A DNA stretch of 64,000 nt from a virus. Its lineage: Duplodnaviria; Heunggongvirae; Uroviricota; Caudoviricetes. The notes beneath the pieces were generated by a model, which did no database searches, was not told the origin of the DNA, and worked only from the letters and a program-made list of their open reading frames with translations. Shown here piece by piece: positions 9,133 through 32,327 of the stretch (position 1 is the stretch's first letter; each line of letters begins with the position of its first letter). Position numbers and translations under genes: made by a program. The stretch covers positions 267,001 to 331,000 of the IMG/VR virus record IMGVR_UViG_3300021387_000463, one strand, 5' to 3'.

Positions 9133-9219
9133 TTAAAATTTATTGCGAGGCTCGAATCAATTCCAATTGACCGATGTTAACGATGATATGTGAGAGCGAG
9201 TTACACCGTTTTTCTCCTC

Positions 9220-9579
9220 TTAGTTAAAATTGTACTTTGACAGACTTCCATATTTACTAATTCCACCATTATACCAATCGTCTAGCAATTGGCTTATGAA
9301 GCCTTTTCTTTCTGTATCGTTTGTTATTCTATTATAAAATTCCTTATCTAGTGCATCAAGCACGTCTTGTTTCCAACATGTCATCTTGGTTGGTTGACCT
9401 TTGTCCAATTTCATGAACACACCAACAATCTTACCCTTACCATCGTCATAAGGTATTGCCTTATAGTTTGCGGTAAGGAACTGAGAACCATGATTCACAT
9501 GGTCTTCATAACATGCTTCCTTTATTAAGTTCTTCTTGAGTGTGTCTAAACCACTTTCAGATAATATGAATGTTTTCAT
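9220..9579 (-). CDS. Hypothetical late protein with capsid-targeting-like leader (start revised to MKTFILSES)
   Basis: Late motif ATATTTATA at 9605-9597; leader MKTFILSESGLDTLKKNLIKE. Confidence 0.6.
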   Translation of the reverse strand: MKTFILSESGLDTLKKNLIKEACYEDHVNHGSQFLTANYKAIPYDDGKGKIVGVFMKLDKGQPTKMTCWKQDVLDALDKEFYNRITNDTERKGFISQLLDDWYNGGISKYGSLSKYNFN

Positions 9580-9595
9580 AATAATTCTTTTATTA

Positions 9596-10168
9596 TTATA
9601 AATATTCATTAATCATCTTTTTGCTCAATGGTATGAGATAAAACACTGCTTCTGGTATCTCGAAAACGTCTACGAATCCAAGTCTTTTCCAATAACTATG
9701 CGTTTTTAAATTCCTTTCAACGCCTATCCAAATAAAGTCATAGTTGTCTCTTAAGAACTTAATGTTGAAGAACAACATTCTCTTATCGAGATTAGTTCCA
9801 CGAAGCCTTTCATCAATAATGAAAGAATGCCCATTGACTTGGGTATATCTATCCAAATATTCTGAAAGTTCTTTCTCAATAAATGAGATTGGAGAACCAA
9901 ACTTTATTGGGCACTCACAGAACATGAGTAAGCCATAAATCTCACCGCTTTCCTTGTCAACTAACTTAACTGAGTCTTCCAAAAGTGCCTTGGACTGACA
10001 AAGTTGTTGATATGCCTCTGCATCACTTGACAAATCAAATGCTTTAGCCAAAGTCTTGCAAATCTGGACTAAATCATCTATAGAGGTCTTCCTTATTTCA
10101 ACCCTTTCCAACAAGTCTTTTTTGGTTAAATTGTTATCAACCAACTTGTTGCATAAATCTATTTGCAT
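9596..10168 (-). CDS. GNAT-family acetyltransferase
   Basis: FIIDERLRGTNL (motif A), YWKRLGF (motif B). Confidence 0.7.
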   Translation of the reverse strand: MQIDLCNKLVDNNLTKKDLLERVEIRKTSIDDLVQICKTLAKAFDLSSDAEAYQQLCQSKALLEDSVKLVDKESGEIYGLLMFCECPIKFGSPISFIEKELSEYLDRYTQVNGHSFIIDERLRGTNLDKRMLFFNIKFLRDNYDFIWIGVERNLKTHSYWKRLGFVDVFEIPEAVFYLIPLSKKMINEYL

Positions 10169-10190
10169 AAACGCATACGATTTACAAGTG

Positions 10191-10222
10191 CAAAGATACT
10201 AAAAATATTTGAGAAAACCAAA
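10191..10222 (-). promoter_or_regulatory. Bacteroidota sigma-A promoter
   Basis: TTTG-N20-TATCTTTG. Confidence 0.8.
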
Positions 10223-10325
10223 TTTTTTAATATTTTTTTGCTTATTTTACAAAAAGGGGAGATTTATCAACATTTTTAACCTCCCCAATTACTTAACTAT
10301 AAAATATTTGAAAAAATTATGAGCG

Positions 10326-12839
10326 TTATCTTATTACAATGTCACCATTTTCGCAAGAAGCACTGAATGTATAGTTTGGTTTATACTCATGTTCGAGCAT
10401 CAATTCTGTGATTTTATCCTCAATATTGTTCTGGATAAGTCTTATGATTGGTCTTGCGCCAAATTCCTTTTTCTTTACAGCCTCTACATGTATATAATCT
10501 ACTACATCATCAGTATATACTATATTATATTCTATATTATTTAATCTAGTATTAAATTTATTTATCTCTAATTTAACTATATTCTTAAGATTATCATCGG
10601 ATAAACTATTAAAATATACTATTTGGTCTAATCTGTTAAGGAACTCTGGAGTAAACTTCTTCTTCAACTCCTTGTCAATGATTGACTTCTTATTTGATTC
10701 CTCACTGCTTACGAAACCAAGTCCATTACCAAGTTCAGCAGCCTTTCTAGCACCAATATTAGATGTCATAAGCACAATTACGTTCTTGAAGTTAACAACT
10801 TGTCCAGCACTATCTGTAAGTCTTCCTTCATCAAATAATTGCAAGAATATATTATAAACCTCTTGGTCTGCCTTTTCAATCTCATCAAGTAGAAGCACAC
10901 AATGTTGTTTATGCTTAATCTGCTCTGTAAGTTGTCCTCCATTCTCATAACCAATGTAACCTGGAGCAGCACCAGTCAACTTAGCAACTGAGTTCTTCTC
11001 TGAATACTCAGACATATCGATTCTGATAAGTGCCTTTTCATCACCAAAGATTTCCTCTGCAAGCTTCTTTGCAATAAGGGTCTTACCACTACCAGTTGGA
11101 CCGACCATTAGGATGTTAGCCATTGTCTTGTTTCTATCACCAAGTCCTACCTTGTTTCTCTTGATGACTCTACATACGCTGTCAACAGCCTCATCTTGTC
11201 CTACAATGCTCTGCTTCAATATCTCATCAATGTGGGCAATCTTAACCTTCTCATCTGATGATAATTTACTTACTGGAATCTTTGTTACCTCAGATACAAC
11301 ATCCGCAATATCTCCCTCTGTGATATCAATTCTAGCAAGATTGAGCTTATTAATGTCTCTCTTATAGTCTGCGAGGTCTGATGCAAGCACATTCTCTTCA
11401 ATGGTTAGTGAGTCAATCTTCTCGAAATCGCCATTGTTAAGTGCCTCGTTCTTTTCCTCTTCAATTTGTCTCATTCTCTTCTTGGTATTCTGAATCTCGA
11501 TAGGTTCTCTGTCAACAAGAGCTGTCTTTGCTCCAGCCAAGTCAATGAGGTCAAATGCAGAATCTGGCAAGCTTCTATCTGTAATGTATCTCTCAGCAAG
11601 CTTAACAGCTTTCTCAATAGCCTTGTCACTATAGTTTACATTATGATAATCCTCGTAGTATTTCTTATTCTCAGTTAAGACTTTAATTGATTCCTCAATT
11701 GATGTAGGTTCAATTACAATCTTCTGTAGTTTTCTAGAAATCTGGGCATTTGATTCAATTGTATTTCTGTATTCCTTGAAGGTTGTTGTAGCAATAACCT
11801 TAACAGTGCCCTCAGTCAATAGGTTTCCAATCATGCCACTGATGTCACCGTCCTTTTCCTTGCTAGTGCTTCTTAGAACTGTATGAATGTCATCAATGAA
11901 TAGGATATATTTCTCAGATGATTGCAAAGTGTCAATCAAGTTCTTCATACGCTCTTCAAACATTCCTCTGAAGTGTGTTCCGCTGACAAGTGCCATTGGA
12001 TTAAGCATTACAATCTCCTTGCCCTCAAGGACGGAAGGAACTTTGTTTTCCTCAATCATCTTTGCGATTCCATAGACGATGGCTGATTTACCACAACCAC
12101 CTTTACCAACTAGTACCGCATTATTCTTCTTGCGTCTTGAAAGAACTTGTATGATTTCCTCAATCTCGTCCCTTCTTCCAATAATATCGTCAATCTTACC
12201 ATTCTTGGCTAACTTATTGAGGCTAGTTGTAAACTGCTCGATTGCTGAATCAGACGAAGAATCTGTTGTAACAGTCTTTGTATTTACTTGACTCTTCAAT
12301 GGTATATCTTTCTTAGCCTTGTTTATTTTCTTAGGTCTTAGTTTAGTAGGTTTCACAACCTTTTCTTGAGTTGGTGCGCTAACGTCACACTTGTTGTATA
12401 TAAATTCATATTGGAGCATAAATCTACCAAAGATTGCTTCCTCCTTAAAGTCGTTCTCCTTATTTAATACTGCGAGTAAGACGTGCTCAGTACCAATCTG
12501 GCTGTTATTCAACTTTTCTGATTCAGTCTTAGCACAATCTAAGATTCTTACCAATTCATCATTAAATCTTACATTACCATCCTTCATTTGAGGATTGGTG
12601 TGTGAGTCTATCACCTCTACGTATACCTTCCTCAACTCATCTAGATTATTAGACATCAAACAATTATCCAAAATTAGGTTTGCATGACAGTCTCTCGTGT
12701 CTAGAATAGCAAGAATAAGGTATTCTGGTGTTAGTACATCTGTTGGAAACTCATTCAACAACACTGTTGACATGTAATCCAATACTCCATTTAATTCAAT
12801 TGTGTAATTAGTCTCGTTCTTTTTACTCATAATTTTCAA
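10326..12839 (-). CDS. clpC: ClpC-like Hsp100 AAA+ chaperone
   Basis: Clp N-domain (IGTEHVLLA), NBD1 GKGGCGKS/LFIDDIH, UVR-like coiled coil, NBD2 GPTGSGKT/LLLDEIEKA, LGF ClpP-binding loop, FGARP. Confidence 0.9.
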   Translation of the reverse strand: MKIMSKKNETNYTIELNGVLDYMSTVLLNEFPTDVLTPEYLILAILDTRDCHANLILDNCLMSNNLDELRKVYVEVIDSHTNPQMKDGNVRFNDELVRILDCAKTESEKLNNSQIGTEHVLLAVLNKENDFKEEAIFGRFMLQYEFIYNKCDVSAPTQEKVVKPTKLRPKKINKAKKDIPLKSQVNTKTVTTDSSSDSAIEQFTTSLNKLAKNGKIDDIIGRRDEIEEIIQVLSRRKKNNAVLVGKGGCGKSAIVYGIAKMIEENKVPSVLEGKEIVMLNPMALVSGTHFRGMFEERMKNLIDTLQSSEKYILFIDDIHTVLRSTSKEKDGDISGMIGNLLTEGTVKVIATTTFKEYRNTIESNAQISRKLQKIVIEPTSIEESIKVLTENKKYYEDYHNVNYSDKAIEKAVKLAERYITDRSLPDSAFDLIDLAGAKTALVDREPIEIQNTKKRMRQIEEEKNEALNNGDFEKIDSLTIEENVLASDLADYKRDINKLNLARIDITEGDIADVVSEVTKIPVSKLSSDEKVKIAHIDEILKQSIVGQDEAVDSVCRVIKRNKVGLGDRNKTMANILMVGPTGSGKTLIAKKLAEEIFGDEKALIRIDMSEYSEKNSVAKLTGAAPGYIGYENGGQLTEQIKHKQHCVLLLDEIEKADQEVYNIFLQLFDEGRLTDSAGQVVNFKNVIVLMTSNIGARKAAELGNGLGFVSSEESNKKSIIDKELKKKFTPEFLNRLDQIVYFNSLSDDNLKNIVKLEINKFNTRLNNIEYNIVYTDDVVDYIHVEAVKKKEFGARPIIRLIQNNIEDKITELMLEHEYKPNYTFSASCENGDIVIR

Positions 12840-12888
12840 TTTTATATTTAAAAAATAACAATTTATCTGGGAAATTCAAGAGCAATAA

Positions 12889-12920
12889 TTTGGAATTTTA
12901 ACATTTTTTATATATCTTTG
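12889..12920 (+). promoter_or_regulatory. Bacteroidota sigma-A promoter for the rightward early operon
   Basis: TTTG (12889-92), 20-nt spacer, TATCTTTG (12913-20); marks the divergence point. Confidence 0.8.
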
Positions 12921-12936
12921 CAAAAAATAGTTAAAT

Positions 12937-13086
12937 ATGGTAATTGAATATGCAAAGGCTTGTTTAGGGTTTAAGCCCAAGAAAAAAGACCCAATTGATA
13001 TTGCAAATGAATTTTGTGAGTGGGCTAAGAAAAATAGCCACGAACATTTAATAATAGATTTAACAAACGAAATAGGTTTTCATTAA
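12937..13086 (+). CDS. Small hypothetical protein (49 aa)
   Basis: MVIEYAKACLGFKPKKKDPIDIANEFCEWAKK...; sits between the promoter and the KTSC gene. Confidence 0.55.
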   Translation: MVIEYAKACLGFKPKKKDPIDIANEFCEWAKKNSHEHLIIDLTNEIGFH

Positions 13087-13088
13087 TT

Positions 13089-13589
13089 ATGAGTAAAATA
13101 TTTAATTTGTACACTAAAGATAGTAATGGAAACGACATTGACCGTACTTGGTATCAATCTAGTAATATTAAGTATAGCGAATGCGTTGACCACAACAATG
13201 ATTTGAAAACATTGAGGGTTGTTTTTAGTAATGGTACGCAGTATGAGTACAAAAATGTTGAAGTCGCTCATTACTTGCTTTTTAGGGATGCTGCTTCACA
13301 AGGTAAGGCTCTCAATGAGTATATCAAGCCAAAGGGTTATGAATATGAGAAACTTGAGAATGCCGACCTTGCGACTCTAGATGGTGAACTCACATTCAGA
13401 ATGGAAGATGGTATCTTTGTATTCTATGAGGGTGGTAAGCTAACAATGAAGGATAATAAGGATAATGTCATATGTGAAAGGGAAGTGAAATTGACACCAG
13501 AAGCATTTGACACGGTTTGCGCTGCTCTTGAGGCAGTTGGTAAACAACTTTACACTGAAGGAAAGGATTTTGCAGATGGAGAAGAATGA
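13089..13589 (+). CDS. KTSC domain protein
   Basis: SSNI.......L.VVF.NG.QYEY.NV....Y..F..A.SQGK.LN..IK matches KTSC. Confidence 0.8.
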   Translation: MSKIFNLYTKDSNGNDIDRTWYQSSNIKYSECVDHNNDLKTLRVVFSNGTQYEYKNVEVAHYLLFRDAASQGKALNEYIKPKGYEYEKLENADLATLDGELTFRMEDGIFVFYEGGKLTMKDNKDNVICEREVKLTPEAFDTVCAALEAVGKQLYTEGKDFADGEE

Positions 13590-13851
13590 TAGACTAACCC
13601 TATATAATGCAGCTATAGCCAAATGGGGTGTTGGGGCACAGAAGAACATGGCGTATGAGGAAATAGGAGAGTTGCTTACAGCCCTAGCGAGGGATGATAG
13701 AGGCAGGACTACTACTGAGGAACTATTAACTGAATTGGCTGATGTTACCATTATGTGTGAGCAAATAGCATATATTCTTGGTTTTGAGGATTATGAGAAA
13801 GAAATTAATAGGAAACTAATAAGACTAAGGGACGATAAACTTAAATTGTAA
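13576..13851 (+). CDS. MazG-like NTP pyrophosphohydrolase (start revised to MEKND)
   Basis: EEIGELL...ELADV dimetal motif. Confidence 0.75.
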   Translation: MEKNDRLTLYNAAIAKWGVGAQKNMAYEEIGELLTALARDDRGRTTTEELLTELADVTIMCEQIAYILGFEDYEKEINRKLIRLRDDKLKL

Positions 13852-14342
13852 TGGGTATAATAATCAGTAGTTTTATAGGCTGTGGAAGAGAATACCTTAA
13901 GAATACGCATGGTGATAAAATTAAGATATTCGATGCAGTCGAAGAAATACCATTGACTGATGTTGATGGGAAAACCAATCAAGATTTATTGGAAGAGTGC
14001 TATAATAAGGTAATGTCAATCGTTGATGAGTATGATGTTGTATTCATACCTTCAAACAAAGCCGTTAGAGACATATTCAATGACAACGGTGTTGACTATG
14101 ACATATTCTATCCGTCTGCTGATAGGAGAAAGGAATTCATTGAGAATCAAGTTAGGAAGAGAACAAAGCCGAATATCATTAGGGCACTAGATAAGAACTT
14201 TGAGAAATGGGTCGATGAAATCGATGATGATGAATCACCAAATTGCTATAAGCACAAACTTAGCAACCAAGGTGAATTCATAGGCAATGAGCCAGCAATA
14301 ATGCAATATATAAGCAGTATTAATCAAAATGAACATAACTAA
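13851..14342 (+). CDS. P-loop-like phage protein with degenerate Walker A
   Basis: IISSFIGCGRE versus the usual ISAFPGCGKS; YP...K.EF..R motif. Confidence 0.5.
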   Translation: MGIIISSFIGCGREYLKNTHGDKIKIFDAVEEIPLTDVDGKTNQDLLEECYNKVMSIVDEYDVVFIPSNKAVRDIFNDNGVDYDIFYPSADRRKEFIENQVRKRTKPNIIRALDKNFEKWVDEIDDDESPNCYKHKLSNQGEFIGNEPAIMQYISSINQNEHN

Positions 14343-14463
14343 AGAGTGGAAAAATCTTCATGAGGCTAGAACTATTATGAAGAGAATGAGAAGGGAAATG
14401 AAGGAACTAAATAAACTAATGGTAATTGCACAACAAGAGATTTGCCAACCTAAATATACTTAA
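14329..14463 (+). CDS. Small hypothetical protein (44 aa)
   Basis: MNITKEWKNLHEARTIMKRMRREMKEL...; fills the gap before thyA. Confidence 0.45.
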   Translation: MNITKEWKNLHEARTIMKRMRREMKELNKLMVIAQQEICQPKYT

Positions 14464-14465
14464 TT

Positions 14466-15710
14466 ATGACAAATTGTGATAAAGTTTACCTCGATTTATT
14501 ACGAGATATAATGGAAAATGGTGTTGAAAAGGACACTAGAGCTGGACGTGTTAAGTCCGTATTCGGAAGACAGATGAGGTTTGACCTTAAGCAAGCATTT
14601 CCTCTTCTCACAACCAAGAAGGTGTTTACTAAGGGAGTCATTCATGAGTTGCTTTGGTTCTTACAGAGACCATACAATTCTCATGGTAGTATGAACATTG
14701 AGTATCTTGTTAGAAATGGTGTTCATATTTGGGATGACGATGCTTATCGCTGGTTCAAGACAAATATTGCACCAACCTTCAATAGTAAAATGGATGGTAA
14801 TTACCAAGTAAAGGGTATATTTCCAAAAGAATATCTTGTATGTACAAGTGATGATGAGAGGGATAAACAACCAGTGTTTGAATATTGGATTGAGAATGAA
14901 CTTAGACAACACGATAACAAATGGCTTAATAACATTACAAAGGAAGAGTTCTTGGACTTAACCTTGCAGAAGGTTGAAATAAAGGGGCTATTCATGTCGA
15001 GATATAGATTTGGTGACTTGGGACCAGTTTATGGCAAACAATGGAGAGCATTCGGAAGAAACCAAAAAGACCAAATTAAGAATATTATTGATACACTGAA
15101 AAATAATCCAAATGACAGAAGGATGCTGTGTGTTGCATATAATCCAGATGAACTTGAGAATATGGCATTGCCTCCTTGTCACGTCATGTTCCAGTTCTAC
15201 ACAAGGGAATTGTCAAATAATGAGAGAATGAAAATCTTCAACAGAAGATACATGAAGGGTCAAATCCCTAAGAAATGGCATGATTGGTTCGAGGAATATT
15301 CCAAGAATACTGAGGAAGGAGCAGATGTCTCAATGCCTAGTGATGGAAGTGATTATGACTTGGCAGACATTCCTAAGTATGGTTTATCATGTATGTATAC
15401 AATGAGGTCAAATGACTGGTTTTTGGGGAGTCCTTTCAATATAGCTTCTTATGCTCTTCTTACGCATATTATTGCAAAATTAGTAAACATGGTTCCAGAT
15501 GAATTAATTGCATCAATTGGGGACTGTCATTTGTATATTGAACATTTAGAGGCAGCAAAAGAACAATTATCTAGAAAGGGTAATGACAAATTACCAAAAT
15601 TATTAATTCACGGTAATCAAAAATCAATTGAAGATTTTAATTTTGAAGATTTTGAAATAATGGGTTATGAACCAGACCCACCGATTAAAGCACCACTGTT
15701 GGTAGGATAA
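14466..15710 (+). CDS. thyA: Thymidylate synthase ThyA with in-frame insertions
   Basis: FPLLTTKKV, ELLWFL, IWD, LGPVYGKQWR, MALPPCH, RSND..LG.PFNIASY, GDCHLY. Confidence 0.95.
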   Translation: MTNCDKVYLDLLRDIMENGVEKDTRAGRVKSVFGRQMRFDLKQAFPLLTTKKVFTKGVIHELLWFLQRPYNSHGSMNIEYLVRNGVHIWDDDAYRWFKTNIAPTFNSKMDGNYQVKGIFPKEYLVCTSDDERDKQPVFEYWIENELRQHDNKWLNNITKEEFLDLTLQKVEIKGLFMSRYRFGDLGPVYGKQWRAFGRNQKDQIKNIIDTLKNNPNDRRMLCVAYNPDELENMALPPCHVMFQFYTRELSNNERMKIFNRRYMKGQIPKKWHDWFEEYSKNTEEGADVSMPSDGSDYDLADIPKYGLSCMYTMRSNDWFLGSPFNIASYALLTHIIAKLVNMVPDELIASIGDCHLYIEHLEAAKEQLSRKGNDKLPKLLIHGNQKSIEDFNFEDFEIMGYEPDPPIKAPLLVG

Positions 15711-16261
15711 TGGCTGTATCAAGATTTGTTCAGAAAAGACAAGAGGAATATAGAAAGCTATATGGAAAAGTCGAACTTAAGGTGATGCAGATAACAAAGG
15801 ACACTTTCGGAGGTGAGGTATATAAATCCACAGTGGATGAAGACAAGAAAGACCATGTTGATTTTTGGTGGGATTCACCCAAGAAAGGTAAAATAGGAAT
15901 AGATGTAAAGGGTATTAGAAAGAATGATGATGGTGAACTTGATGATACAATATTTTGGATTGAGTTTAGAAACAACCCAGGACTTCCTGGTTGGATATAT
16001 GGAAAGGAAGAATATATTGCCATAGAGAGGTTTACAGATATTGTTTACATCAAGAGGGATGTTCTTAGGAAATACGCTGAAGATAAGCTACCTAAGATGG
16101 AACCAGTTACAAAGAGACCAAGGGAATTCTTTGTGCCTTATACAAGAAGCTTTTGGGGTCACAGAGACCTTACAATGAAAGTTCCGATGTCTGACATAAT
16201 ACAATTGGTAAACGAGAAGGGAGAAGATGGAACTTCAAACGGATTTTTTGCTGTATTCTAA
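15710..16261 (+). CDS. PD-(D/E)XK-family nuclease-like protein
   Basis: HVDF...IDVKG...WIEF.N..G.PGW.YG pattern. Confidence 0.6.
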   Translation: MAVSRFVQKRQEEYRKLYGKVELKVMQITKDTFGGEVYKSTVDEDKKDHVDFWWDSPKKGKIGIDVKGIRKNDDGELDDTIFWIEFRNNPGLPGWIYGKEEYIAIERFTDIVYIKRDVLRKYAEDKLPKMEPVTKRPREFFVPYTRSFWGHRDLTMKVPMSDIIQLVNEKGEDGTSNGFFAVF

Positions 16262-16266
16262 TATTA

Positions 16267-16297
16267 AAAGGTGTTGCGAAAGTGACACCTTTTTTTA
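16267..16297 (+). terminator. Rho-independent terminator ending the early operon
   Basis: aaaaggtgt-tgcgaaagtg-acacctttt followed by a T tract. Confidence 0.8.
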
Positions 16298-16304
16298 TTG
16301 TGTA

Positions 16305-16313
16305 ATATTTATA
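16305..16313 (+). promoter_or_regulatory. Putative phage late promoter ATATTTATA (first + strand copy of about 22)
   Basis: The same motif precedes almost every structural gene: 18117, 20361, 23453, 25403, 27540, 30634, 32195, 32287, 33844, 36029, 40198, 41397, 43413, 48422, 52892, 54848, 59005, 59282, 59904; minus strand at 9605 and 32180. Confidence 0.7.
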
Positions 16314-16349
16314 GAGAAAATAACTTATAAAAAAAAAATAAAGAATAAT

Positions 16350-16697
16350 ATGAAAGCAAATATGTTAGACTACATGTACGAGGGTTATGGCTATGATATG
16401 GATAACCAACTCCTTTACACTGATGTTGAAAAGTATAACGAGGCACTTACAAGCGGTAGCAGCATGTCTACTTATGGTATGGAGACACTTGCTCATCAAG
16501 GTATCATTACACATGACCCAGCAATTCCAACCGATAAGGACAACAAGTATATTGAGGTCGCTTCATTTATCTCAGAGAGTGGTGCTAAATATACTGACCT
16601 TAGAAAGCCTCTTTGCGGATGCTGCACTAGCGGTTCAACACAGTCAAGCCCAGTTACCAATCTTGGTGAGGGTGAGGTCATAGACAACGGTGACTAA
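16350..16697 (+). CDS. Hypothetical late/virion protein (start revised to MKANML)
   Basis: ATG after the late motif; N-terminal MYEGYGY resembles the N-termini of 38440 and 36086. Confidence 0.6.
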   Translation: MKANMLDYMYEGYGYDMDNQLLYTDVEKYNEALTSGSSMSTYGMETLAHQGIITHDPAIPTDKDNKYIEVASFISESGAKYTDLRKPLCGCCTSGSTQSSPVTNLGEGEVIDNGD

Positions 16698-16716
16698 TTC
16701 TTAAATTAATGTTTCG

Positions 16717-18093: not shown

Positions 18094-18162
18094 TTAATAT
18101 TTTTTAATTATATGAAATATTTATATTAAAAATAAGTTTGAAAAAAATTAATATATATTAAT

Positions 18163-19803: not shown

Positions 19804-20315
19804 ACGAAATAGCTTTTGAGGAGAGACCAACAAAATTGGAAATACCAAACAGCAACCCTCTAGGTGGTAGTGTTGATGGCATGGGTGATTTAGATAATGC
19901 TCAAATACCACCAATGGGTGCTGACAATATGGGGATGGAAAACCTAGCAGATGGTGCTCAAGGCGATATGCCTCTAGGCGAAGCTCCAATGGATACACAA
20001 CAAGCTCCAATTGGTGATGGTATGGAAGGTGAAGATTCAGAGAATGCTGAAATTAATAATGTGATTAATGGCATGAATTTGAACAATAAATTAAAGGTTC
20101 TTAACTATGCTAAGAGCATTGAAGATGATTCAAACGATATGCCTCAAGATGGTGGAATACCAATGGAATCAACCTTCAACTACAAGGGTATAATTGATGA
20201 GGTTATAAATGATGTTTTGGATGATTATGAAGGTACAAAGAGGCCTGAAGATACAATGCCAAAAGAGTATAGAAGTCAACCAATAACACCATTCCAATCT
20301 CCAAATTTTAAATAA
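19782..20315 (+). CDS. -1 frame extension of 18163..19803 (track ORF 19836..20315)
   Basis: -1 frame is open from the slippery TTT-A9-C; no ATG until 19881; same G/M/D-rich and PMES composition. Confidence 0.55.
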   Translation, partial: FKKKQKVNEIAFEERPTKLEIPNSNPLGGSVDGMGDLDNAQIPPMGADNMGMENLADGAQGDMPLGEAPMDTQQAPIGDGMEGEDSENAEINNVINGMNLNNKLKVLNYAKSIEDDSNDMPQDGGIPMESTFNYKGIIDEVINDVLDDYEGTKRPEDTMPKEYRSQPITPFQSPNFK

Positions 20316-20385
20316 GACAAAAAGGGATACTTTTGAGTGTCCCTTTTTTGTTTTGTGCAGATATTTATAAAGAAAATATGTACAT

Positions 20386-22520: not shown

Positions 22521-22573
22521 ATGAATCTTAAGAGACATTTATATAGAAATAAGCAAATAAATACGTATTTAAA

Positions 22574-23329
22574 ATGGATAAGAAAATCATAAGACTAACT
22601 GAATCAGACCTTCATAATATTGTGAAGGAATCAGTGAATAAAATTTTGAAAGAATATACAGGAGATTTTGGCTACAGTGATGACCCAAACTATAACAAAT
22701 TTGCACAGCAAAATAGACCTCAGCAAAAACAGACTCCACCACTTGCTAACTATCAGCCAAAGAGACTTGGTGGTAATTTGGTGTCTAATGATGGTGGGGA
22801 ATCATATATGTGGGATGATTCTCAACAAAGGCAATTTGGAAACAATGGAACTGTAGAAGAATCTGCTGTAAACGAGGTAAAGTATGATGGCGTTTCATAT
22901 CACGGAACAAACCCTTATGATTGGGTAGATGTTGCTAAAGAGAGACAATATAAGGCAAGAGGGGAAGAAGATAAAGTTTCCCAATATAATAGAGAACGTT
23001 TTAAAGCAAAAGACAATGGTGACTTTATGGGTGCAGAAAATGCATCCAATAATGCAGATACACATAGGCAACAGTGGAGGCTTCAAAATAAAAAAATGAA
23101 TAGAAACTATGATAATGCGAAACAACTTGGATGGAAAGGTGTTGATTGGGAAGGAAATGGAGATACAAGATTAGGTAAAGCACAAGAATATTACAATATG
23201 GGTCAGAACGCTCAAACGCCACAAGACAGACAACGTTATAATAAAATGGCTCAAGATACATTGGGTGACGTAGAAGGTAGAGCACAAAAGAGTCTAAATA
23301 TGCTAAGAGCCGCAAGAGGGCAAGCATAA
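22574..23329 (+). CDS. Candidate internal head protein with IRLTESDL leader
   Basis: MDKKIIRLTESDLHNIVKESVNKILKE followed by a Q/N-rich polar region. Confidence 0.65.
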   Translation: MDKKIIRLTESDLHNIVKESVNKILKEYTGDFGYSDDPNYNKFAQQNRPQQKQTPPLANYQPKRLGGNLVSNDGGESYMWDDSQQRQFGNNGTVEESAVNEVKYDGVSYHGTNPYDWVDVAKERQYKARGEEDKVSQYNRERFKAKDNGDFMGAENASNNADTHRQQWRLQNKKMNRNYDNAKQLGWKGVDWEGNGDTRLGKAQEYYNMGQNAQTPQDRQRYNKMAQDTLGDVEGRAQKSLNMLRAARGQA

Positions 23330-23517
23330 CAATAACGAGCAACCTAACCAACTTGGTTGCTCGTTATATTTTATCAAAAATTGGGGTCTAATTGTATATA
23401 GTTGCCAAATATAAAGAGCAATCAGCAATGGTTGCTCTTTTTTTGTTTGTAAATATTTATAAATGAATAACTTTTCGAAACACTGTTATATTTATTTAAA
23501 TTTAGAATGTTACAATT

Positions 23518-25395
23518 ATGATTTACGATAGGCAAGAAATGAGTCGAGACTATGCCATGTGCTATGCCGACAAATCAAGAATTACATTTATAGAAAAGTA
23601 TTTCTCTACCTTTAATGCAACTAAGGGTAAGAAAACACAATTCCACTGTTTTCCACGTCAGAGAGCATTCCTCAAGGCTCTTGCGGAGAATAGAAACGTT
23701 GTTGCGATTAAACCAAGACAGTGTGGTATCACAACATTATCAAGTGCTTGGGCTGCTGCCCAGTGTGCATTTGCATCAGCAGAGGCACCTGAGACTGTGT
23801 TGTGTATTGCCAATAAGCTTGAGCAAGCGCAAGAAATTATCATCAAGGTAAGAGATTTCCTTGAGCAAGTTCCTAGATGGTATTGGGGTAACGATTATTT
23901 CTCAGTTGACCCTAATTCAGAAAAAAACACAAAATCAATTTTTTTAAAGGATGCAAAAGGTGAGTTGAAATTGTTCAATGGCTGTAGAATCATTGCACGT
24001 GCATCTGGTCCTAATGCTTCTCGTGGTATCTCTGCTGTATCCGTATTGATTCTTGACGAGGCAGCATTCATTGAGGAAGGTGTGGCTGCATTTACCACTG
24101 CTGCTGCAACTATGGCATCTAACCCTAATTCTAAGACTGTTATGGTATCTACCCCTAACGGTAGAGACGAGCTTTACTATAACACATATAGACAAGCATT
24201 AAGCCATGAGAATAACTTCGTGGCAGTACAGTTCCGTTGGTATCAAGACCCAAGATTCAACAAGTATCTTGTTTGGAAGAAGAAGAACGAGAATACTGGA
24301 GAATGGGAGTTTGACCAAGACCCAATAATCGATAGCGAGGGAAGTGTGAAGTATGATGAGGAAAGATGGGCTAGACTTGAACATAACGGTTGGAAGCCTA
24401 CAGCACCTTGGTATGATGAAATGTGCAAGCAGTTCAACAATGACTCAATGAAGATTGCCCAAGAGCTTGATGTATCGTTCATGGGTTCTGCCGACAACGT
24501 TGTTGCCCCAGAGTTCATTGAAATGCAAGAGAAACTTAACACAAGAGAGCCACTTGATGATTTCCATGACCCATTAGTTGAGGAGACTTGGTTCTGGAAG
24601 CGTCCTCTTGAGGGACACCGTTACATTCTTGCGTGTGACCCATCAAGAGGTGTGTCTGCCGATAGAACAGCCATTGAGATTATTGATATGGATGGAAGGG
24701 ACGAGAATGGTATACCTATCATTGAACAAGTTGCGGAATATGTCGGTAAAAAATTAGGTGATGACATCGGAGCATTGTGTTATCAATATGCCACAATGTA
24801 TAATGATGCTTTCATTGTTGTGGACTGTACTGGTGGTCAAGGTGATGCTGCTATATTGGCACTTATTAATATGGGTTATAAGAACATGTACTATGAGGAC
24901 TCTAACCAGAAGACATATACGGTTCAGAGGTCAACGAAGAACTATGATGGATACACGGATAAACTTCCAGGTTTCCACTTCCAAGGAAACCGTTATCCAG
25001 TACTTGCAAACTTCGCAGGACTTGTTCGTAACAATGAGTTCAAGATTCGTTCAGCTAGGGTAATCAATGAGCTTGAGACTTGGATATTCAAGGGTGAGGC
25101 AGCTAGAATTGACCACCAAGACGGTGCTCATGACGATACTCTTACAGCATTGGCTATGGGATTATTCGTTATGCAGTACACTGTCAATAGGATACAGAAT
25201 ACTGCCAATAAGGATAAGGCCATCCTTAATGCGTATATGATGAATCGTGCAATTAGTATGAATAAGCCTAAGATGAAGAGTGGAGAAACCATTGCTCCTA
25301 AGACTGGTTTACCTTTCTATAGTTCAAAGAAACGTATTGAGAAATATGATAAAATTGGTGGAAGTTGTATGTGGCTATTTGGGGGTATTCGTTAA
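23518..25395 (+). CDS. terL: Terminase large subunit (T4 gp17-like)
   Basis: KPRQCGITT Walker A, LILDEAAF Walker B, VSTPNG coupling motif, ACDPSRG..D and HDD nuclease motifs. Confidence 0.95.
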   Translation: MIYDRQEMSRDYAMCYADKSRITFIEKYFSTFNATKGKKTQFHCFPRQRAFLKALAENRNVVAIKPRQCGITTLSSAWAAAQCAFASAEAPETVLCIANKLEQAQEIIIKVRDFLEQVPRWYWGNDYFSVDPNSEKNTKSIFLKDAKGELKLFNGCRIIARASGPNASRGISAVSVLILDEAAFIEEGVAAFTTAAATMASNPNSKTVMVSTPNGRDELYYNTYRQALSHENNFVAVQFRWYQDPRFNKYLVWKKKNENTGEWEFDQDPIIDSEGSVKYDEERWARLEHNGWKPTAPWYDEMCKQFNNDSMKIAQELDVSFMGSADNVVAPEFIEMQEKLNTREPLDDFHDPLVEETWFWKRPLEGHRYILACDPSRGVSADRTAIEIIDMDGRDENGIPIIEQVAEYVGKKLGDDIGALCYQYATMYNDAFIVVDCTGGQGDAAILALINMGYKNMYYEDSNQKTYTVQRSTKNYDGYTDKLPGFHFQGNRYPVLANFAGLVRNNEFKIRSARVINELETWIFKGEAARIDHQDGAHDDTLTALAMGLFVMQYTVNRIQNTANKDKAILNAYMMNRAISMNKPKMKSGETIAPKTGLPFYSSKKRIEKYDKIGGSCMWLFGGIR

Positions 25396-25453
25396 GTAAC
25401 AAATATTTATATTTATACTTAAAACAATTATATTTTATAATAAATGATTTAAA

Positions 25454-27493
25454 ATGGCTAAAAATACAGTTTTCCAAGCCCTAGATAAAGCTATAAGCGG
25501 TAATTGGTCTTCTCCATCAACATCAATAGCAGAACCACATATAAATTCATATGATTTGAGTTCTAATGGTGGTAAAAATATACTCTACAAAACAACGGAT
25601 AGAGAGGATTACTTACAGAAGAAACTAGAGCTTCAGCAAGATAAGTACTTGAAGGACAGATGGGTTAAAACAAATGTTAACCTAGCTGTAACTGCATATG
25701 CTGGACTTAACAACGTCAAGTTGATGTATCGTGATGGCGATTTGATGGATGCATTTCCAGAGATTAGTGCAGCACTTGATATTGTTTCTGAGGAAAGTAC
25801 AATTGTTAATGACAAGGGAATGGTTGTTAATGTTTATTCAAAGTCAGATAGAATCAAGAGCATTCTTGAGGATTTGTTCGTGAATAGGCTTAACATCCAG
25901 TTAACTGGTCAAATGATTATTCGTGCAATGTGTAAGTATGGTAATCAGTTCATGTTATTGGATATTGACCATAAGAATGGTGTGAAGGGTTGGAAACAAC
26001 TTCCAGTGTTTAACATGGAAAGAATTGAGAACGGAATTCAGAATCCTTATGGTGCTGGTGCATCAATCGCTGTTAACGGTATCACAAAGGATGACGCAGA
26101 CCTTTCAACTCAGTTCATTTGGTTGGATGACAATAACTCTCAAGTACCATTTAGAGATTGGCAGATTGCACACTTCAGATTGCTCACCAACTCATTATAT
26201 TTGCCTTACGGTGTAAGTTATCTTAATGGCGCACGTAGACATTGGAGAATGCTTTCACTTATGGAGGACATGATGCTTATTTATCGTCTTGAGCGTTCTG
26301 TTGAAAGACGTGTATATAAGATTTTCGTAGGAGCAATTGACGATGCTGATGTTGAGGCATATGTTGAGAGAATTGCTAATGAGTTCAAAAGAACACCAAT
26401 TATTGACCCAGTAACAGGTCAAGTTGACCTTCGTAAGAATATTCTTGGAATTGATAATGATATATTCATTCCAGTTCGTGATGAGAATGCTCCAACTCCA
26501 ATTGATACTCTTCAAGCAGGTCAGAACATGACAGCTCTTGATGACATCAAGTTCGTACAGAATAAGGTGTTGACCTCACTTAGAATACCTAAGTCATTCT
26601 TGAATTTCGAGGAAGGTGTTGGTGACGGTAAGAATCTTGCACTTATGGATATTCGTTTCACTAGAACAGTAAACAGAATACAGCAAGCATTCTTGATGGA
26701 ACTTACAAAAGTGGCTTCAATCCACTTGTTCTTGTTGGGATTCAATGATGAATTAACTAATTTCTCATTGACAATGAATAATCCATCAACACAAGCTGAA
26801 GGATTGGAGATTGAGAATATGCAAAAGAAGATTGATGCTGTTAGAGACGCAGTATCAGACCCAGGAAATGGTCTTCCAGTTATGTCACAGACTCGTGCTC
26901 TTAAGCAGATTATGAAATGGTCTGAGAAGGAGATTAAAGAGAACCTTGAAGAGATACGTCTTGAGAAGGGTATTGCTGCTGAACTTGAGAAAACCACACA
27001 GATTATCAAGAAGACTGGTATTTTCGATACCGTTGATAGAATCTATGGTGAACCAGGAGCAGAATACATGGATGATATGCAAGGCGGTCAAGGCGGCATG
27101 GACGCTGGAGGAGGCGGTATGGGCGGTGGAATGGGAGCACCACCACCTCCAATGGGAGACGCACCTGATATGGGTGGAGATATGGGCACACAAGGTGATG
27201 ATGGTAGTGGAATGACACCAGCCCAAGAGGGTTCAATGCCAACTGCCGATATGGGAACTGACCCAAATGCACCAATGGAGTCTAGATATTCAAGCAAGCC
27301 ACTAATAAAGGAGCAGAACAACAAGCTTGATGAAATGTTTAATAAGTATCTCTCAACCTTGAATGGGCGTAATGAGAAACATAGGGAAACTGAATACAAG
27401 CGTGCAAATGTCTATGACGAGGACTCATTATTGATTAATGAGGAATTTGATAAGATGATTGACGAACTTGGTAAGTTTGTTGACAATGAATAA
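25454..27493 (+). CDS. gp20: Portal protein (T4 gp20-like)
   Basis: PEISAALD, SYL..ARRHWRML.LMED.MLIYRL.RS.ERRV..I.VG, IDTL.AGQN, L.IPKSFL. Confidence 0.92.
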   Translation: MAKNTVFQALDKAISGNWSSPSTSIAEPHINSYDLSSNGGKNILYKTTDREDYLQKKLELQQDKYLKDRWVKTNVNLAVTAYAGLNNVKLMYRDGDLMDAFPEISAALDIVSEESTIVNDKGMVVNVYSKSDRIKSILEDLFVNRLNIQLTGQMIIRAMCKYGNQFMLLDIDHKNGVKGWKQLPVFNMERIENGIQNPYGAGASIAVNGITKDDADLSTQFIWLDDNNSQVPFRDWQIAHFRLLTNSLYLPYGVSYLNGARRHWRMLSLMEDMMLIYRLERSVERRVYKIFVGAIDDADVEAYVERIANEFKRTPIIDPVTGQVDLRKNILGIDNDIFIPVRDENAPTPIDTLQAGQNMTALDDIKFVQNKVLTSLRIPKSFLNFEEGVGDGKNLALMDIRFTRTVNRIQQAFLMELTKVASIHLFLLGFNDELTNFSLTMNNPSTQAEGLEIENMQKKIDAVRDAVSDPGNGLPVMSQTRALKQIMKWSEKEIKENLEEIRLEKGIAAELEKTTQIIKKTGIFDTVDRIYGEPGAEYMDDMQGGQGGMDAGGGGMGGGMGAPPPPMGDAPDMGGDMGTQGDDGSGMTPAQEGSMPTADMGTDPNAPMESRYSSKPLIKEQNNKLDEMFNKYLSTLNGRNEKHRETEYKRANVYDEDSLLINEEFDKMIDELGKFVDNE

Positions 27494-27563
27494 GATAAAA
27501 GGCGTGGCAATAACTGTCACGCTTTTTCTGTTAAACATGATATTTATAAGAAATAATGTTTGA

Positions 27564-29858
27564 ATGAAAAGTAAAAGATTATTAGAATATTTTGAAGGTA
27601 CTCCAGATACTGTATACGATACGACTAATCAAGTAACTTGGGAATGGGATAATGAAATGGCAATATCTTTTGGATACTTCCCTATTTCATTAGATAATGA
27701 GTACCTTTTTATGACTGGTACAACAACTCATCTTATGATTGGAGCACAAGCAGCAAAGAAATTGATGGGAAAGGCAATCAGTCATATAAAGGACACCTAT
27801 ATTCCTTGGATTGAAAGACAGTGTTATGGAAAGTCATATTGTCGTGGAAGGATATGGACATTTGATACTGATAAGTATCCTAGTATCATGGCATTTTGGT
27901 ATCTTCCAAGTTCTAGAATGGTTAGAAAGATTGTAAATGAACTTAATATAGACCCATACAAATATATATTGGTAGTGGAAGACTCTAAGAATGCATTTGA
28001 GGAAAATCCAACAATAGCCGAATATATAGAGTCAAATTGTAATGGTGATGATGGATATGATGAAATTAGCGAACCATTTGCTATTGATAAGAGGGTTGTT
28101 GAAATTATAAGAAGATATAATGATACCCAGAAGACTTGGCAAACTAGCAAGGAAAAGGAAGGTTGGAAGTCGCTTGCCCAGAGAAATGCTGTGTTGTATC
28201 AAGAGAATAGACAGAGGATTGATGAATACTTTGCTGGAGACCCAGATACGATTGATGAGTTCGATGATGTTAGTGGTGAATGCATAAGAAGCATAAACTA
28301 TAGGGATAAGAACGTAATATCATTCGGTTTCTTCCAGACAACACTTGATGGAGGTAAGGAATTCATATATAAGACTGACATCTGTCATCATGACATCTGT
28401 AGGGGAATTGCAGAGAAGATAGTTGGTAAAGCCATAGCTTCAGAGGACGTAGAAGAGGGTGAGATAAGAGAGATTGCCTCTTCAATATATTCTGCTACAG
28501 CATACAAGGGACGTATATTCTTGGATGCCAACATGATAACAACATGGAACAGGGTATCTTCAAGTACATTAGAGAATTTGCTTAATCTAATGGGTGGTGT
28601 TGAAAAGTGGAAGCACTTGAGTTACATTGTTCCAAGATGGTATGACCAGAATTGGGAAACTGATGATTTGTCACAGAAGAATATTAATGTTGTTGAATAC
28701 ATTGCAGATGGCATTACTGCTGATGAAACAAGAGATAAGTACTTGATGGAAAGGGATTTCAAACCATTGGTTGATGAGTGGCTTATCAACACCATAAGAG
28801 ACTACAATAAACCTAACTCAACATTAGCAACTAAGACAGCAAAATTGGGTAATATGACAATTGCACAATACAATTCGTTGATACATCAAGAAGAGAAAGA
28901 ACCTAAACAAACTATAAAAGAAAATAATATAAATATGAAAGATAATAAGTATCAAGACTATATTAACATAATGTCTGAGGCATTACAGAAGGATGACTTC
29001 AAGGCATACGAATATGTTAAAGAAATGCTAGATGAGACTATTGAAGAGAGCAAGCATGAGAAAGAACTTATGAACGAAATGAATACAACCAATTTCGGTG
29101 TGTTGAACCATATCTTCGAGAATGAACTTCCAACTCTCATCAAGACAAACAAAAAGGCTGTAAGGAATGTCATCAAGACCATTAAGGAGGATAAGAACCT
29201 TATCAACCAGTTCAACTTCTACAATGTCATCAAGGAGCAGTACAATGGAAGTCATGCTGACATGATTTCATCTAAGGAAGCTCTTGAGAACCTTGCAAAG
29301 ATTGTTGGTGAAAACATTGACCTCAAGACCGTAAAGGCTTCAAACAAGAAGTTAAGAAACGTGATGATTGAGAGTGGTGTTAAGCCAAGTAACTTTGTTG
29401 ATGAGGAATCAAGAAAGCTTTATGAAAATGGTGATGTAATCCTCACATCAAAGAGAAATACAAACAACATGATTTCTCTTGTCGAGAGTTATAACGCTGT
29501 TAGCAACTGGATGGATGCTCATAAGTCAGATAAGATTAATGAAGGTAAGACTCCAGATGAAATGATTAAGGAGTTTGAGGACAAACTTAAGGACAACCTT
29601 AATGAGTCTGAGATTTCATTCGTTCAGCAAATCACTGATTGGAGAAGTCCAATTGCAGAGCAGAGAAAAGAGAAACTTTTCAACAAGTTCAAGAATGAAT
29701 GCATCAATAAGATTAACGAAATGTTGAAGGAAGATGCAGAGAATGTTGAGCTTAAGGGTTTGAGCGACCAGATTAATGAAATGAATTTTAATAAAGAGAC
29801 AATTGTAAAGGATATTGCAAAGTTACTTGAAATAAGAGATATTTTAATGGATGATTAA
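27564..29858 (+). CDS. Head-module protein: two tandem N-terminal repeat domains fused to a helical C-terminal domain
   Basis: Repeats EYFEGTPDT..ISFGYF..RGRIW and EYFAGDPDT..ISFGFF..KGRIF; possible internal start at 28935 (MKDNK). Confidence 0.65.
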   Translation: MKSKRLLEYFEGTPDTVYDTTNQVTWEWDNEMAISFGYFPISLDNEYLFMTGTTTHLMIGAQAAKKLMGKAISHIKDTYIPWIERQCYGKSYCRGRIWTFDTDKYPSIMAFWYLPSSRMVRKIVNELNIDPYKYILVVEDSKNAFEENPTIAEYIESNCNGDDGYDEISEPFAIDKRVVEIIRRYNDTQKTWQTSKEKEGWKSLAQRNAVLYQENRQRIDEYFAGDPDTIDEFDDVSGECIRSINYRDKNVISFGFFQTTLDGGKEFIYKTDICHHDICRGIAEKIVGKAIASEDVEEGEIREIASSIYSATAYKGRIFLDANMITTWNRVSSSTLENLLNLMGGVEKWKHLSYIVPRWYDQNWETDDLSQKNINVVEYIADGITADETRDKYLMERDFKPLVDEWLINTIRDYNKPNSTLATKTAKLGNMTIAQYNSLIHQEEKEPKQTIKENNINMKDNKYQDYINIMSEALQKDDFKAYEYVKEMLDETIEESKHEKELMNEMNTTNFGVLNHIFENELPTLIKTNKKAVRNVIKTIKEDKNLINQFNFYNVIKEQYNGSHADMISSKEALENLAKIVGENIDLKTVKASNKKLRNVMIESGVKPSNFVDEESRKLYENGDVILTSKRNTNNMISLVESYNAVSNWMDAHKSDKINEGKTPDEMIKEFEDKLKDNLNESEISFVQQITDWRSPIAEQRKEKLFNKFKNECINKINEMLKEDAENVELKGLSDQINEMNFNKETIVKDIAKLLEIRDILMDD

Positions 29859-30084
29859 TGTTATAAAAGACGTTATAAGTGAGGTTATAAATAATTATCT
29901 AAATAGTAAGTGTATGATTAAAGAAAATTCTTATTGGGGGGACGATTTGCAGACATTACATGCTTGCGAAGAGTCCCTAAAGGGTGTATACGGAAGATTG
30001 ATAGATAAAGGTCTAACAAAAAACGTTTACATCGTTCAACAGCTTGGGGAAATAATTGGTAAGCTAGAGAAATTAACAAAGTAA
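29851..30084 (+). CDS. Hypothetical protein with leader-like N-terminus
   Basis: VIKDVISEVINNYL...MIKE. Confidence 0.55.
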   Translation: MINVIKDVISEVINNYLNSKCMIKENSYWGDDLQTLHACEESLKGVYGRLIDKGLTKNVYIVQQLGEIIGKLEKLTK

Positions 30085-30188
30085 GTAAAGATGGGTAATC
30101 TACGCACGATTGCCCATTTTTTTTTGTGTTTGGGGCTTGATTTTTACTAAAATTTTTGTTATTTTTTAAAAGTAAAAGATATAACAAA

Positions 30189-30623
30189 ATGAAACGACTT
30201 AATAAAGAATATAAATTAGACGTGTGTAATCATATTTCGTTAAAGTATGGTACGGTAAATAGAAACAACCCTCAAGTTGTTTATATCAGTGGGAAATGTT
30301 GGGTATCTCCACAAAGAGAAATGAATTATTCTGATGTTATTGATAACATTGAAAAAGGTATGAAGAGGAATATAAAATCATTTTTGATTGATGGTATAAA
30401 CTTCGATAATCGCTTTATATTAGACTTTGACATCAACACTGAAGGGCTTATACCGAAGGAGAAGAAATTCCTCTCATTCGACTTCTATTTGCGTCAGAAC
30501 GAGAAGAACAAAAAGCAGTTACAAGATTTGAATGATTTGTTTAAGAGAAAGATTAGTACTATTGCCAACAACCTAGTATATTCTTTTAAGGAAAATGATT
30601 TCACGATAAACAAAAAAAAATAA
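30189..30623 (+). CDS. Hypothetical phage protein (start revised to MKRLNK)
   Basis: KYGTVNRNNPQVVYI motif; AT-rich leader. Confidence 0.6.
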   Translation: MKRLNKEYKLDVCNHISLKYGTVNRNNPQVVYISGKCWVSPQREMNYSDVIDNIEKGMKRNIKSFLIDGINFDNRFILDFDINTEGLIPKEKKFLSFDFYLRQNEKNKKQLQDLNDLFKRKISTIANNLVYSFKENDFTINKKK

Positions 30624-30658
30624 ACTCTCAAGAATATTTATTATAAAAATTAAGTATC

Positions 30659-30991
30659 ATGAAGAAGGTAATAAGACTAACAGAATCAGAATTGAAAAAT
30701 ATCATAAAGAATTCCGTTAATAGAATATTAAGGGAAGATGTATTGGGAAATGATTGGCGTGAGAACGACAATGTATTGAATAACTATGAACCATTTGAGG
30801 GTGAGGAACATTCTACCCCATTTGACGGTATGACAAATGACCATGACTTTGGAATAACTGGAGAACCTCTTGACCAAACTCATGATGACATTAATCAAGA
30901 TGATATTGTAAATGGTGGAGACCCAGAGGAATGGGCACAAGATAGAATTGACCTTGAGGCCAATTACGATGATTTTCCACCAATGAGATAA
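30659..30991 (+). CDS. Candidate internal head protein with IRLTES leader
   Basis: MKKVIRLTESELKNIIKNSVNRILRE followed by an acidic tail. Confidence 0.65.
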   Translation: MKKVIRLTESELKNIIKNSVNRILREDVLGNDWRENDNVLNNYEPFEGEEHSTPFDGMTNDHDFGITGEPLDQTHDDINQDDIVNGGDPEEWAQDRIDLEANYDDFPPMR

Positions 30992-31019
30992 TTTTTTTGG
31001 ATGGTGTTTTGGCAAAAAG

Positions 31020-31050
31020 AAAGCGAGACTAGATTTAGCCTCGCTTTTTT
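31020..31050. terminator. Bidirectional terminator between convergent genes
   Basis: aaagcgag...ctcgcttt hairpin with A and T tracts. Confidence 0.7.
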
Positions 31051-31054
31051 ATTT

Positions 31055-31453
31055 TTAAATATTCTTTATTTTTACTGTGAAACTTTTAATGTATGAATTC
31101 CTTACACATACAAATTCTATGTTGTCTTTTATTGGAGCATATGCCTTGATTCTCTCCATGAATGTTTGTCTGTCCTTAGATGTGTAGTCACTCATTGGAT
31201 AGCATATATATTCTGTATAACGTCCCATATCCTTTGAATTCATATGCCTCCATCCACATTCTCTTTCAGCTCTCAAGAGGGCTTCAATTGCTCTACCGTT
31301 TGCAGATGAACGATATTCGTCAACTTGGCCTTGGTCGAAGAATAGGTCAGTTTGTCCATTTGGATAAACACCAATCTCATTTATAATTCTAGTGACCGAT
31401 TCGTTTATCAGACCATGCAAGTCACCTTCAGTTAATCTTATCACTTTTTTCAT
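31055..31453 (-). CDS. Candidate internal head protein with IRLTEG leader
   Basis: MKKVIRLTEGDLHGLINESVTRIINE; directly downstream of the prohead protease gene. Confidence 0.65.
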   Translation of the reverse strand: MKKVIRLTEGDLHGLINESVTRIINEIGVYPNGQTDLFFDQGQVDEYRSSANGRAIEALLRAERECGWRHMNSKDMGRYTEYICYPMSDYTSKDRQTFMERIKAYAPIKDNIEFVCVRNSYIKSFTVKIKNI

Positions 31454-32156: not shown

Positions 32157-32327
32157 TAATATTTTTTTATTAATAAATATTTGTCCTTTTCTAAATATTT
32201 ATATATTAGTCGATAAAACCAAATAGTAAAATGCCTATATTTCTACTAATTTTAAGGGTATATAGAATTTTTTTGGTATTTTTGGTATATTTATATAAAA
32301 AAATAATGTATTAAATCTATTTTCTAA

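Follow-up and report, generated by a model that had tools for sequence, protein, structure and literature searches.

Why should proteins of otherwise unrelated sequence begin with the same peptide, and why should some of them be encoded beside the prohead protease gene of a phage? These questions arise from a window of 64,000 nucleotides (nt) of a rumen phage with a T4-type head, the genome of which comprises 412,753 bp at 36% G+C. The window covers bases 267,001-331,000 of a single phage contig (IMG/VR record IMGVR_UViG_3300021387_000463), and coordinates below are window positions unless marked as genome positions. Three of its open reading frames (ORFs), referred to here by their start positions as 22574, 30659 and 31453(-), share an N-terminal leader of 26-27 amino acids (aa), roughly MKK-(I/V)-IRLTESDLHNIVKESVxRILxE. 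An earlier, sequence-only reading took this leader for a capsid-targeting signal that is removed by the prohead protease and loads varied cargo into the head for injection.

Our own analysis leads us to put at about even the chance that the leader is a longer form of the T4-like capsid-targeting propeptide. If so, it would dock its bearer, late in infection, to the scaffold core or the inner shell while the prohead assembles; the S77 (gp21-like) protease would then cut after the terminal Glu, as is predicted for the capsid and scaffold proteins, and the mature body would be released in the head interior, to serve as part of the core or as cargo leaving with the DNA. The leader's fixed place at the N-terminus, the lack of relationship among the bodies, selection acting on the peptide, a sharp boundary and an intact S77 protease agree with what such a propeptide predicts at the sequence level, as do the leader genes in the head modules of several relatives, their late-type units, the few [LI]xE sites in the bodies and a leader that AlphaFold leaves undocked.

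The leader and its boundary

The claim that three unrelated proteins start with a common leader held up well. A hidden Markov model (HMM) built from the three leaders retrieved exactly these ORFs from a six-frame translation of the window, at 60-64 bits, with the next match at 7 bits, and BLASTP detected no similarity between their bodies. Across the whole genome the same model found nine strong N-terminal copies, one weaker copy and three internal copies (Table 1), and a loose M-anchored regular expression matched 10 times, compared with 0.12 matches in shuffled proteins. The sharing of the leader is far beyond chance. Ile5, Glu9, Leu12 and Glu26 are invariant in the alignment of the genome copies, similarity stops at Glu26, and the bodies that follow show no BLASTP similarity to one another anywhere in the genome.

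The leader is predicted to consist of a short basic strand (M-K-K-I-I-R-L), a T-E-S-D cap and one amphipathic helix that ends hydrophobic-hydrophobic-x-Glu. In the AlphaFold model of the 132-aa protein encoded by 31453(-), the alpha/beta body reaches a predicted local distance difference test score (pLDDT) of 80-92; residues 1-39 lie below 50, with the leader helical and undocked from the body. Foldseek searches with this model against PDB and BFVD returned no match at E <=1e-3, and the best VIA-align matches of the body were de novo designed alpha/beta proteins (Z 7-8), indicating a generic fold. None of the three window proteins matched a Pfam or PHROGs family, and the sole family match among the other genome copies was DUF3008, on one N-terminal extension. 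The 84-aa body of 30659 is very acidic (net charge -22) and of low complexity, and that of 22574 is a mosaic in which a second junction, V-N-E, precedes a conserved C-terminal module.

Conservation of the leader appears to reside in the peptide itself. Residues are 58% identical among 12 genome copies; the same codon is used at conserved residues with a frequency of 0.43, against 0.39 expected from codon usage, and the conserved Ser switches between TCN and AGY codons. A DNA repeat, a recent conversion tract and an RNA element are excluded, since codon choice at conserved residues equals the random expectation. Because synonymous sites are saturated, yet the leader remains 58-96% identical in a clade where the scaffold has fallen to 33%, these comparisons indicate that the peptide is under long-term purifying selection.

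The module also ends abruptly. Among IMG/VR leaders each position up to and including the terminal Glu carries 2-4 bits of information and those that follow ~0.5 bits, and ~94% of leaders in the IMG/VR loci end in [ILV][LI]xE. Among orthologues of the 31453(-) protein, the bodies of which are 65-95% identical, some have the 26-aa leader and others one of 16 aa of the type MKRIVITESAYHRLLE, and both meet the conserved body exactly after Glu. Short members of the 22574 family fuse leader L-N-E straight to the C-terminal module that V-N-E precedes in 22574 itself, and the module joints in this family lie at x-N-E|V. A similar end is found in two head proteins: the N-domain of the scaffold candidate closes with K-[LI]-L-[ST]-E ahead of an acidic tract, and the maturation site of the major capsid protein (MCP), as predicted by alignment with the layout of T4 gp23, follows residue 60 at L-[IL]-x-E|A-T, a motif kept in 12 orthologues while its x position varies. 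The scaffold end is thus of the same type as those of the leader and the predicted MCP site.

Looser versions of the leader had been suggested at four further ORFs, and here the outcome was divided when they were examined by HMM, two regular expressions with shuffled controls, and hhalign. ORFs 20847, 16717 and 29851 gave no HMM, regular-expression or hhalign score and were rejected; the N-terminus of 20847 is, in addition, not kept in its orthologues. The N-terminus of 9579(-) matches two M-anchored regular expressions (0.1-0.4 matches in shuffled controls), and its orthologues keep the 21-aa pattern. This ORF lies outside the late units discussed below, in a non-late block behind a ClpB-like gene, and we consider it a credible short variant of the leader whose membership is uncertain.

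Leader genes, the head module and late-type units

If the leader is a capsid-targeting propeptide, its genes might be expected near the head genes and to be expressed with them. As the sequence-only reading had stated, one leader gene directly follows the gp21-like protease gene: 31453(-) starts 4 nt downstream of this Peptidase_S77 gene on the same strand. The gene 30659 converges on the protease gene from the other side and sits between the portal and protease genes, the position that is occupied in T4 by the genes for gp67 and gp68, which are core proteins (PMC9026906). The protease itself seems intact, as it matches the T4 gp21 structure 5JBL (E 8e-16) and retains both the catalytic His (GELNHP) and Ser (SSRG).

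This genome (G000) was compared with its relatives G001 (349 kb), G002, G003, G004 (317 kb) and G005, and leader genes adjoin the protease gene in three of four related genomes, namely G000, G001 and G005. The stretch from the protease gene to the portal gene contains four leader genes in G005, the MCP of which is 91% identical; in G001 (MCP 76%) one follows the protease gene immediately, and another neighbours the 20847 orthologue in the way that 22574 neighbours 20847 here. The corresponding genes of G002 have short leader-like N-termini. The records of G003 and G004 lack a full MCP gene as well as portal and protease genes, and these two are uninformative for the co-occurrence of leader and protease because both records are fragments without a head module. 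More broadly, a protease gene lies within 10 kb in 21 of 78 IMG/VR leader loci, against ~6% expected at random in a 350-kb genome, loci that are phylogenetically related to one another.

The octamer [AC][ATC]ATTTAT occurs 15-40 nt upstream of the genes for MCP, scaffold, protease, portal, terminase (TerL) and fibres and is absent from the replication block at 1-12830, from which we infer a candidate late promoter element. The statement that most leader genes follow a late motif was confirmed for the window, in that the octamer precedes 30659 and 22574 at -25 and -39 and serves 31453(-) through the protease gene, which has it at -27. When late-type units were defined by operon walking, as genes with the octamer or within a tight same-strand run headed by it, all 11 leader genes of the genome fell into such units, compared with 198 of 581 genes (34%) overall (Fisher p = 6e-6). 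A motif equally common in early genes would have counted against a role in the virion, and this is not what we observed.

These associations would hold equally well if the leader were never removed. It could be a helix that docks its bearer to some part of the virion or prohead (scaffold core, inner shell or portal region), with the terminal Glu kept for binding; late units and head-module linkage fit such a helix as well as they fit cleavage, internal and C-terminal copies would still function, and the terminal Glu is no more invariant than the Glu at core position 5, so that invariance alone marks no cleavage site. We nevertheless think an uncleaved docking helix unlikely, given that conservation stops exactly at a motif of the predicted MCP site type, that leaders of different length have been swapped exactly at the terminal Glu, and that proteases of the T4 type cleave (L/I)xE sites left exposed in proteins associated with the core (PMC9026906).

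Distribution in viromes and bacterial genomes

The leader is abundant well beyond this genome. A profile search of 1.84 billion representative proteins returned 6,170 clusters at E <=1e-3 and 474 at E <=1e-10; none of the matched proteins that we examined had a Pfam domain or a name, and a fish serine-rich protein among them proved to be a low-complexity false positive. Searches of the ESM Atlas with leader proteins gave unnamed viral clusters only. In IMG/VR we confirmed 284 leader stretches, mostly on contigs of up to 412 kb, and fetched 78 loci for detailed counts. These 78 loci encode 165 motif ORFs, 154 of which have the motif at the N-terminus; the invariant Ile falls at residue 5-6 in 143, and 11 ORFs have two copies. 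The 153 N-terminal bearers group into 79 unrelated body families (median body 99 aa), and Pfam matches are nearly absent from the bodies, with five incidental families among 90 IMG/VR representatives. Each of five large relatives proved to have 9-19 copies, often in tandem arrays.

A degenerate DNA scan of bacterial genomes located the motif on contigs binned into metagenome-assembled genomes of rumen Prevotella and Bacteroidaceae, which points to Prevotella-type hosts. Two isolates, Segatella bryantii DSM 11371 and Prevotella sp. MA2016, each had a single chromosomal copy, and no phage head genes lay close to either. Both chromosomal copies lie in low-G+C islets, one by a GH2 gene and an rRNA operon, the other by an IS1595 transposase gene. 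They look acquired and may be a clue to gene flow from phage to host; they also demonstrate that a phage head module need not accompany the motif.

Such lone copies would suit a leader that is an interaction or regulation module unrelated to the capsid, for instance an oligomerisation helix, a module that binds a host target or a tag for the phage's own ClpB/ClpC-like AAA+ unfoldase. In each genome most copies are far from the head module, the bodies carry no function that links them to virions, and the short variant 9579(-) lies just downstream of a Clp-like gene in a non-late block. Yet the leader genes of this genome all share their late-type units with structural genes, leader genes are enriched beside the protease gene in several genomes, and the chromosomal copies are single and look acquired, set as they are in low-G+C islets by an insertion sequence or small ORFs of no known identity. 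It seems rather improbable to us, on this evidence, that the module has nothing to do with the capsid.

Returning to the capsid-targeting propeptide, several observations weigh against it besides the chromosomal copies. All relatives with a visible head module form one clade (MCP at least 62% identical), so that the co-occurrence of leader and protease is partly phylogenetic. No cultured phage of the collection searched has the leader, as tblastn against its 50,697 phage records, including more than 2,500 with a gp23-like MCP, gave nothing at E <=1. Compared by hhalign, leader and scaffold N-terminus have no significant similarity beyond their last 6 residues, only the final r-I-L-x-E being aligned (probability 14%), and a single-sequence comparison gave a weak 40% identity over 20 columns (E 0.07); descent of the leader from a copy of the scaffold N-terminus is accordingly not established. 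The leader bodies of this genome contain three [LI]xE sites in 1,342 aa (0.22 per 100 aa) against 8.6 expected from composition, and those in IMG/VR have 0.63 per 100 aa against ~1.5 in other small genes, a low density that is nevertheless largely explained by composition. Bodies lean acidic (42%, compared with 18% of small genes), unlike the basic T4 IPI-III. Together with their lack of a recognisable function, this leaves the proposal that they are cargo for injection without support.

The position of some copies is a further point of this kind, as 7-13% are internal and a few stand at the very C-terminus, which a purely N-terminal, removable tag does not predict. In this genome one copy lies behind a DUF3008 domain and two are internal to a 649-aa ORF, proteins that could be polyproteins or gene fusions. 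Internal copies in metagenomic two-copy proteins (P0002-P0008 and others) often keep an upstream 'NESKNMNKK', Met included. Of all internal copies, 27% retain the Met, some way into a preceding 'NESKN' that resembles an A-rich 5' leader turned into protein; this suggests fusion of neighbouring leader genes, as if through loss of a stop codon.

Fusions of this sort, and the tandem arrays of leader genes, would also suit a cassette with no common function, an exon-like N-terminus that is inherited and spreads by recombination or fusion among fast-evolving small phage genes. The peptide conservation described above, maintained over saturated synonymous sites across a clade in which the scaffold has diverged, makes a functionless cassette highly unlikely. 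Should the leader instead serve a whole clade of huge phages of Prevotella as an address label, its bearers would be loaded into the prohead and cleaved after Glu, and ORFs with several leaders would be polyproteins cut at each hydrophobic-x-Glu. We advance this wider proposal tentatively and judge it to be somewhat short of an even chance.

Comparison with known tags, and other genes of the head module

In T4, N-terminal capsid-targeting sequences (CTSs) of 10-19 aa guide unrelated internal proteins to the scaffold core, gp21 cuts these sequences off at (L/I)xE, and T4 relatives encode varied proteins with CTS-like starts (PMC9026906; PMC5694885). The leader resembles the CTSs of IPI, IPII, IPIII and Alt (Mullaney and Black; reviewed in PMC9026906) in being a short N-terminal peptide on unrelated mature parts, in ending in (L/I)-x-E and in sharing its genome with a gp21/S77 protease; its bearers, too, are small, late, fast-turning-over accessory genes, some of them placed between portal and protease like gp67/gp68. 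It differs in its length of 26 aa, in its predicted strand and long amphipathic helix, in the number of bearers per genome (9-19 compared with 3-5), in bodies that are mostly acidic rather than basic, and in the occurrence of internal and C-terminal copies. There is no similarity to the T4 sequence MKTYQEFIAE, in agreement with the earlier description of the tag as longer than that of T4 and unrelated to it. In T4, exchange of the terminal Glu for Asp prevents processing and leaves targeting intact. Because the length differs, the sequences are dissimilar and no T4-like phage has a match, the leader would at best work like a CTS, and by sequence it is not a member of the T4 CTS family.

The phiKZ-like giant phages SPN3US and 201phi2-1 likewise remove propeptides of head and ejection proteins with a gp21-related protease, cleavage that is only predicted for the phage studied here, and they have paralogues with conserved N-termini for which a targeting role was inferred (PMC5694885). 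Their propeptides are, however, 80-160 aa long, are cut at A/S-x-E and are common to paralogues only (PMC5694885), whereas one short leader is found here on at least 79 unrelated body families in phages with a classical T4-type head and gp22-like scaffold. A sequence-independent analogy can be drawn with encapsulins, the leader being unrelated in sequence to their cargo-loading peptides. Those peptides are short and portable and bring unrelated cargo into a shell of the HK97 fold; they can stand at either terminus, are usually C-terminal and are not cleaved.

The concept of such a tag is known from T4. The present leader, with its length, predicted strand-helix form, copy number and rumen abundance, is undescribed in the literature and databases searched: a text search of 8.4 million papers did not find its motif strings, and the Jug-phage paper makes no mention of such a leader. 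Among the huge phages of Bacteroidota in gut and rumen, which are uncultivated, most genes lack a known function. If the leader is a capsid tag, it would provide a marker, from sequence only, of particle-borne proteins, 9-19 per genome and thousands of families in metagenomes, and would extend the capsid-targeting principle of T4 to a tag of different structure and far wider use. If the address-label proposal is true, the packaged or co-injected proteome of uncultivated phages would become readable from sequence, including thousands of dark-matter families, and the 26-aa tag could be used to load foreign proteins into these capsids. If it is not a capsid tag, the leader would still be among the most abundant undescribed peptide modules of rumen viromes, one with no Pfam family.

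Table 1. Coordinates of leader genes, octamers and head genes (window positions unless marked as genome positions or given with a genome or locus handle)
Feature	Position	Strand	Details
Leader protein, 251 aa	22574..23329	+	Leader aa 1-27 (nt 22574-22654), ends ILKE
Leader protein, 110 aa	30659..30991	+	Leader aa 1-26 (nt 30659-30736), ends ILRE
Leader protein, 132 aa	31055..31453	-	Leader aa 1-26 (nt 31376-31453), ends IINE
Short (21-aa) leader-like N-terminus MKTFILSESGLDTLKKNLIKE of a 119-aa protein	9220..9579	-	Regular expressions; orthologues
Strong N-terminal leader copies, eight of nine	genome 7651, 10917, 21413, 250538(-), 289574, 297659, 298055(-), 357579		Three are the window copies
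Weaker leader copy	genome 6722		
Internal leader copy, residues 62-83	G000:C1:394875-395354 (L008)		Behind DUF3008 domain
649-aa ORF with two internal leader copies	G000:C1:248539-250488 (L005)		Each copy preceded by E-S-[KR]-x-P
Chromosomal leader ORF	L147:9933-10193		Segatella bryantii DSM 11371
Chromosomal leader ORF	L148:9799-10824		Prevotella sp. MA2016
Late-type octamer ACATTTAT	22535..22542	+	39 nt upstream of 22574 ATG
Late-type octamer ATATTTAT	30634..30641	+	25 nt upstream of 30659 ATG
Late-type octamer ATATTTAT	32173..32180	-	27 nt upstream of protease ATG; heads protease-leader gene pair
ClpB/ClpC-like double AAA+ protein, 834 aa	10326-12830	-	AAA_2, ClpB_D2-small; 9579(-) two genes downstream, same strand
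Large terminase	23518-25395		
T4-type portal	25454..27493	+	Portal_T4, E 1e-87; one edge of stretch holding small leader genes
764-aa protein without assigned function	27564-29858	+	Between portal gene and small leader genes
Prohead protease, 231 aa	31458..32153	-	Peptidase_S77 (T4 gp21) family, PF03420, E 4e-24
Scaffold candidate, 497 aa	32328..33821	+	gp22-like by position and composition
Major capsid protein, 679 aa	33892..35931	+	Gp23 family, Gp23, E 5e-73

Among the other head genes, the scaffold candidate has a conserved 50-aa N-domain (aa 1-50, 32328-32477) that ends in K-L-L-S-E and is followed by a long acidic tract. Its first [LI]xE lies at residue 26, which equals the leader length, and the second half of the N-domain (TESAVKALLGEAV...KLLSE) is loosely like the leader core, a likeness that is not significant at the hhalign probability of 14%. 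Within the head module [LI]xE sites are densest in the 764-aa protein, with 24 sites or 3.1 per 100 aa, as would be in keeping with a core protein processed into fragments. The relatives conserve this protein, in highly variable form, at 30-90% identity.

The window MCP is only distantly related to those of deposited phages, the nearest being ~39% identical. A 93-aa ORF in G004 (G004:C1:284092-284244; L101, L103) matches MCP residues 450-496 alone, at 60% identity. The G001 orthologue of the protease (G001:C1:265809-267629; L105:9810-11630, + strand) is a 607-aa open frame, in which the parts matching residues 4-96 and 93-231 of the window protease are separated by ~360 aa inserted in frame, perhaps as an intein or some other domain.

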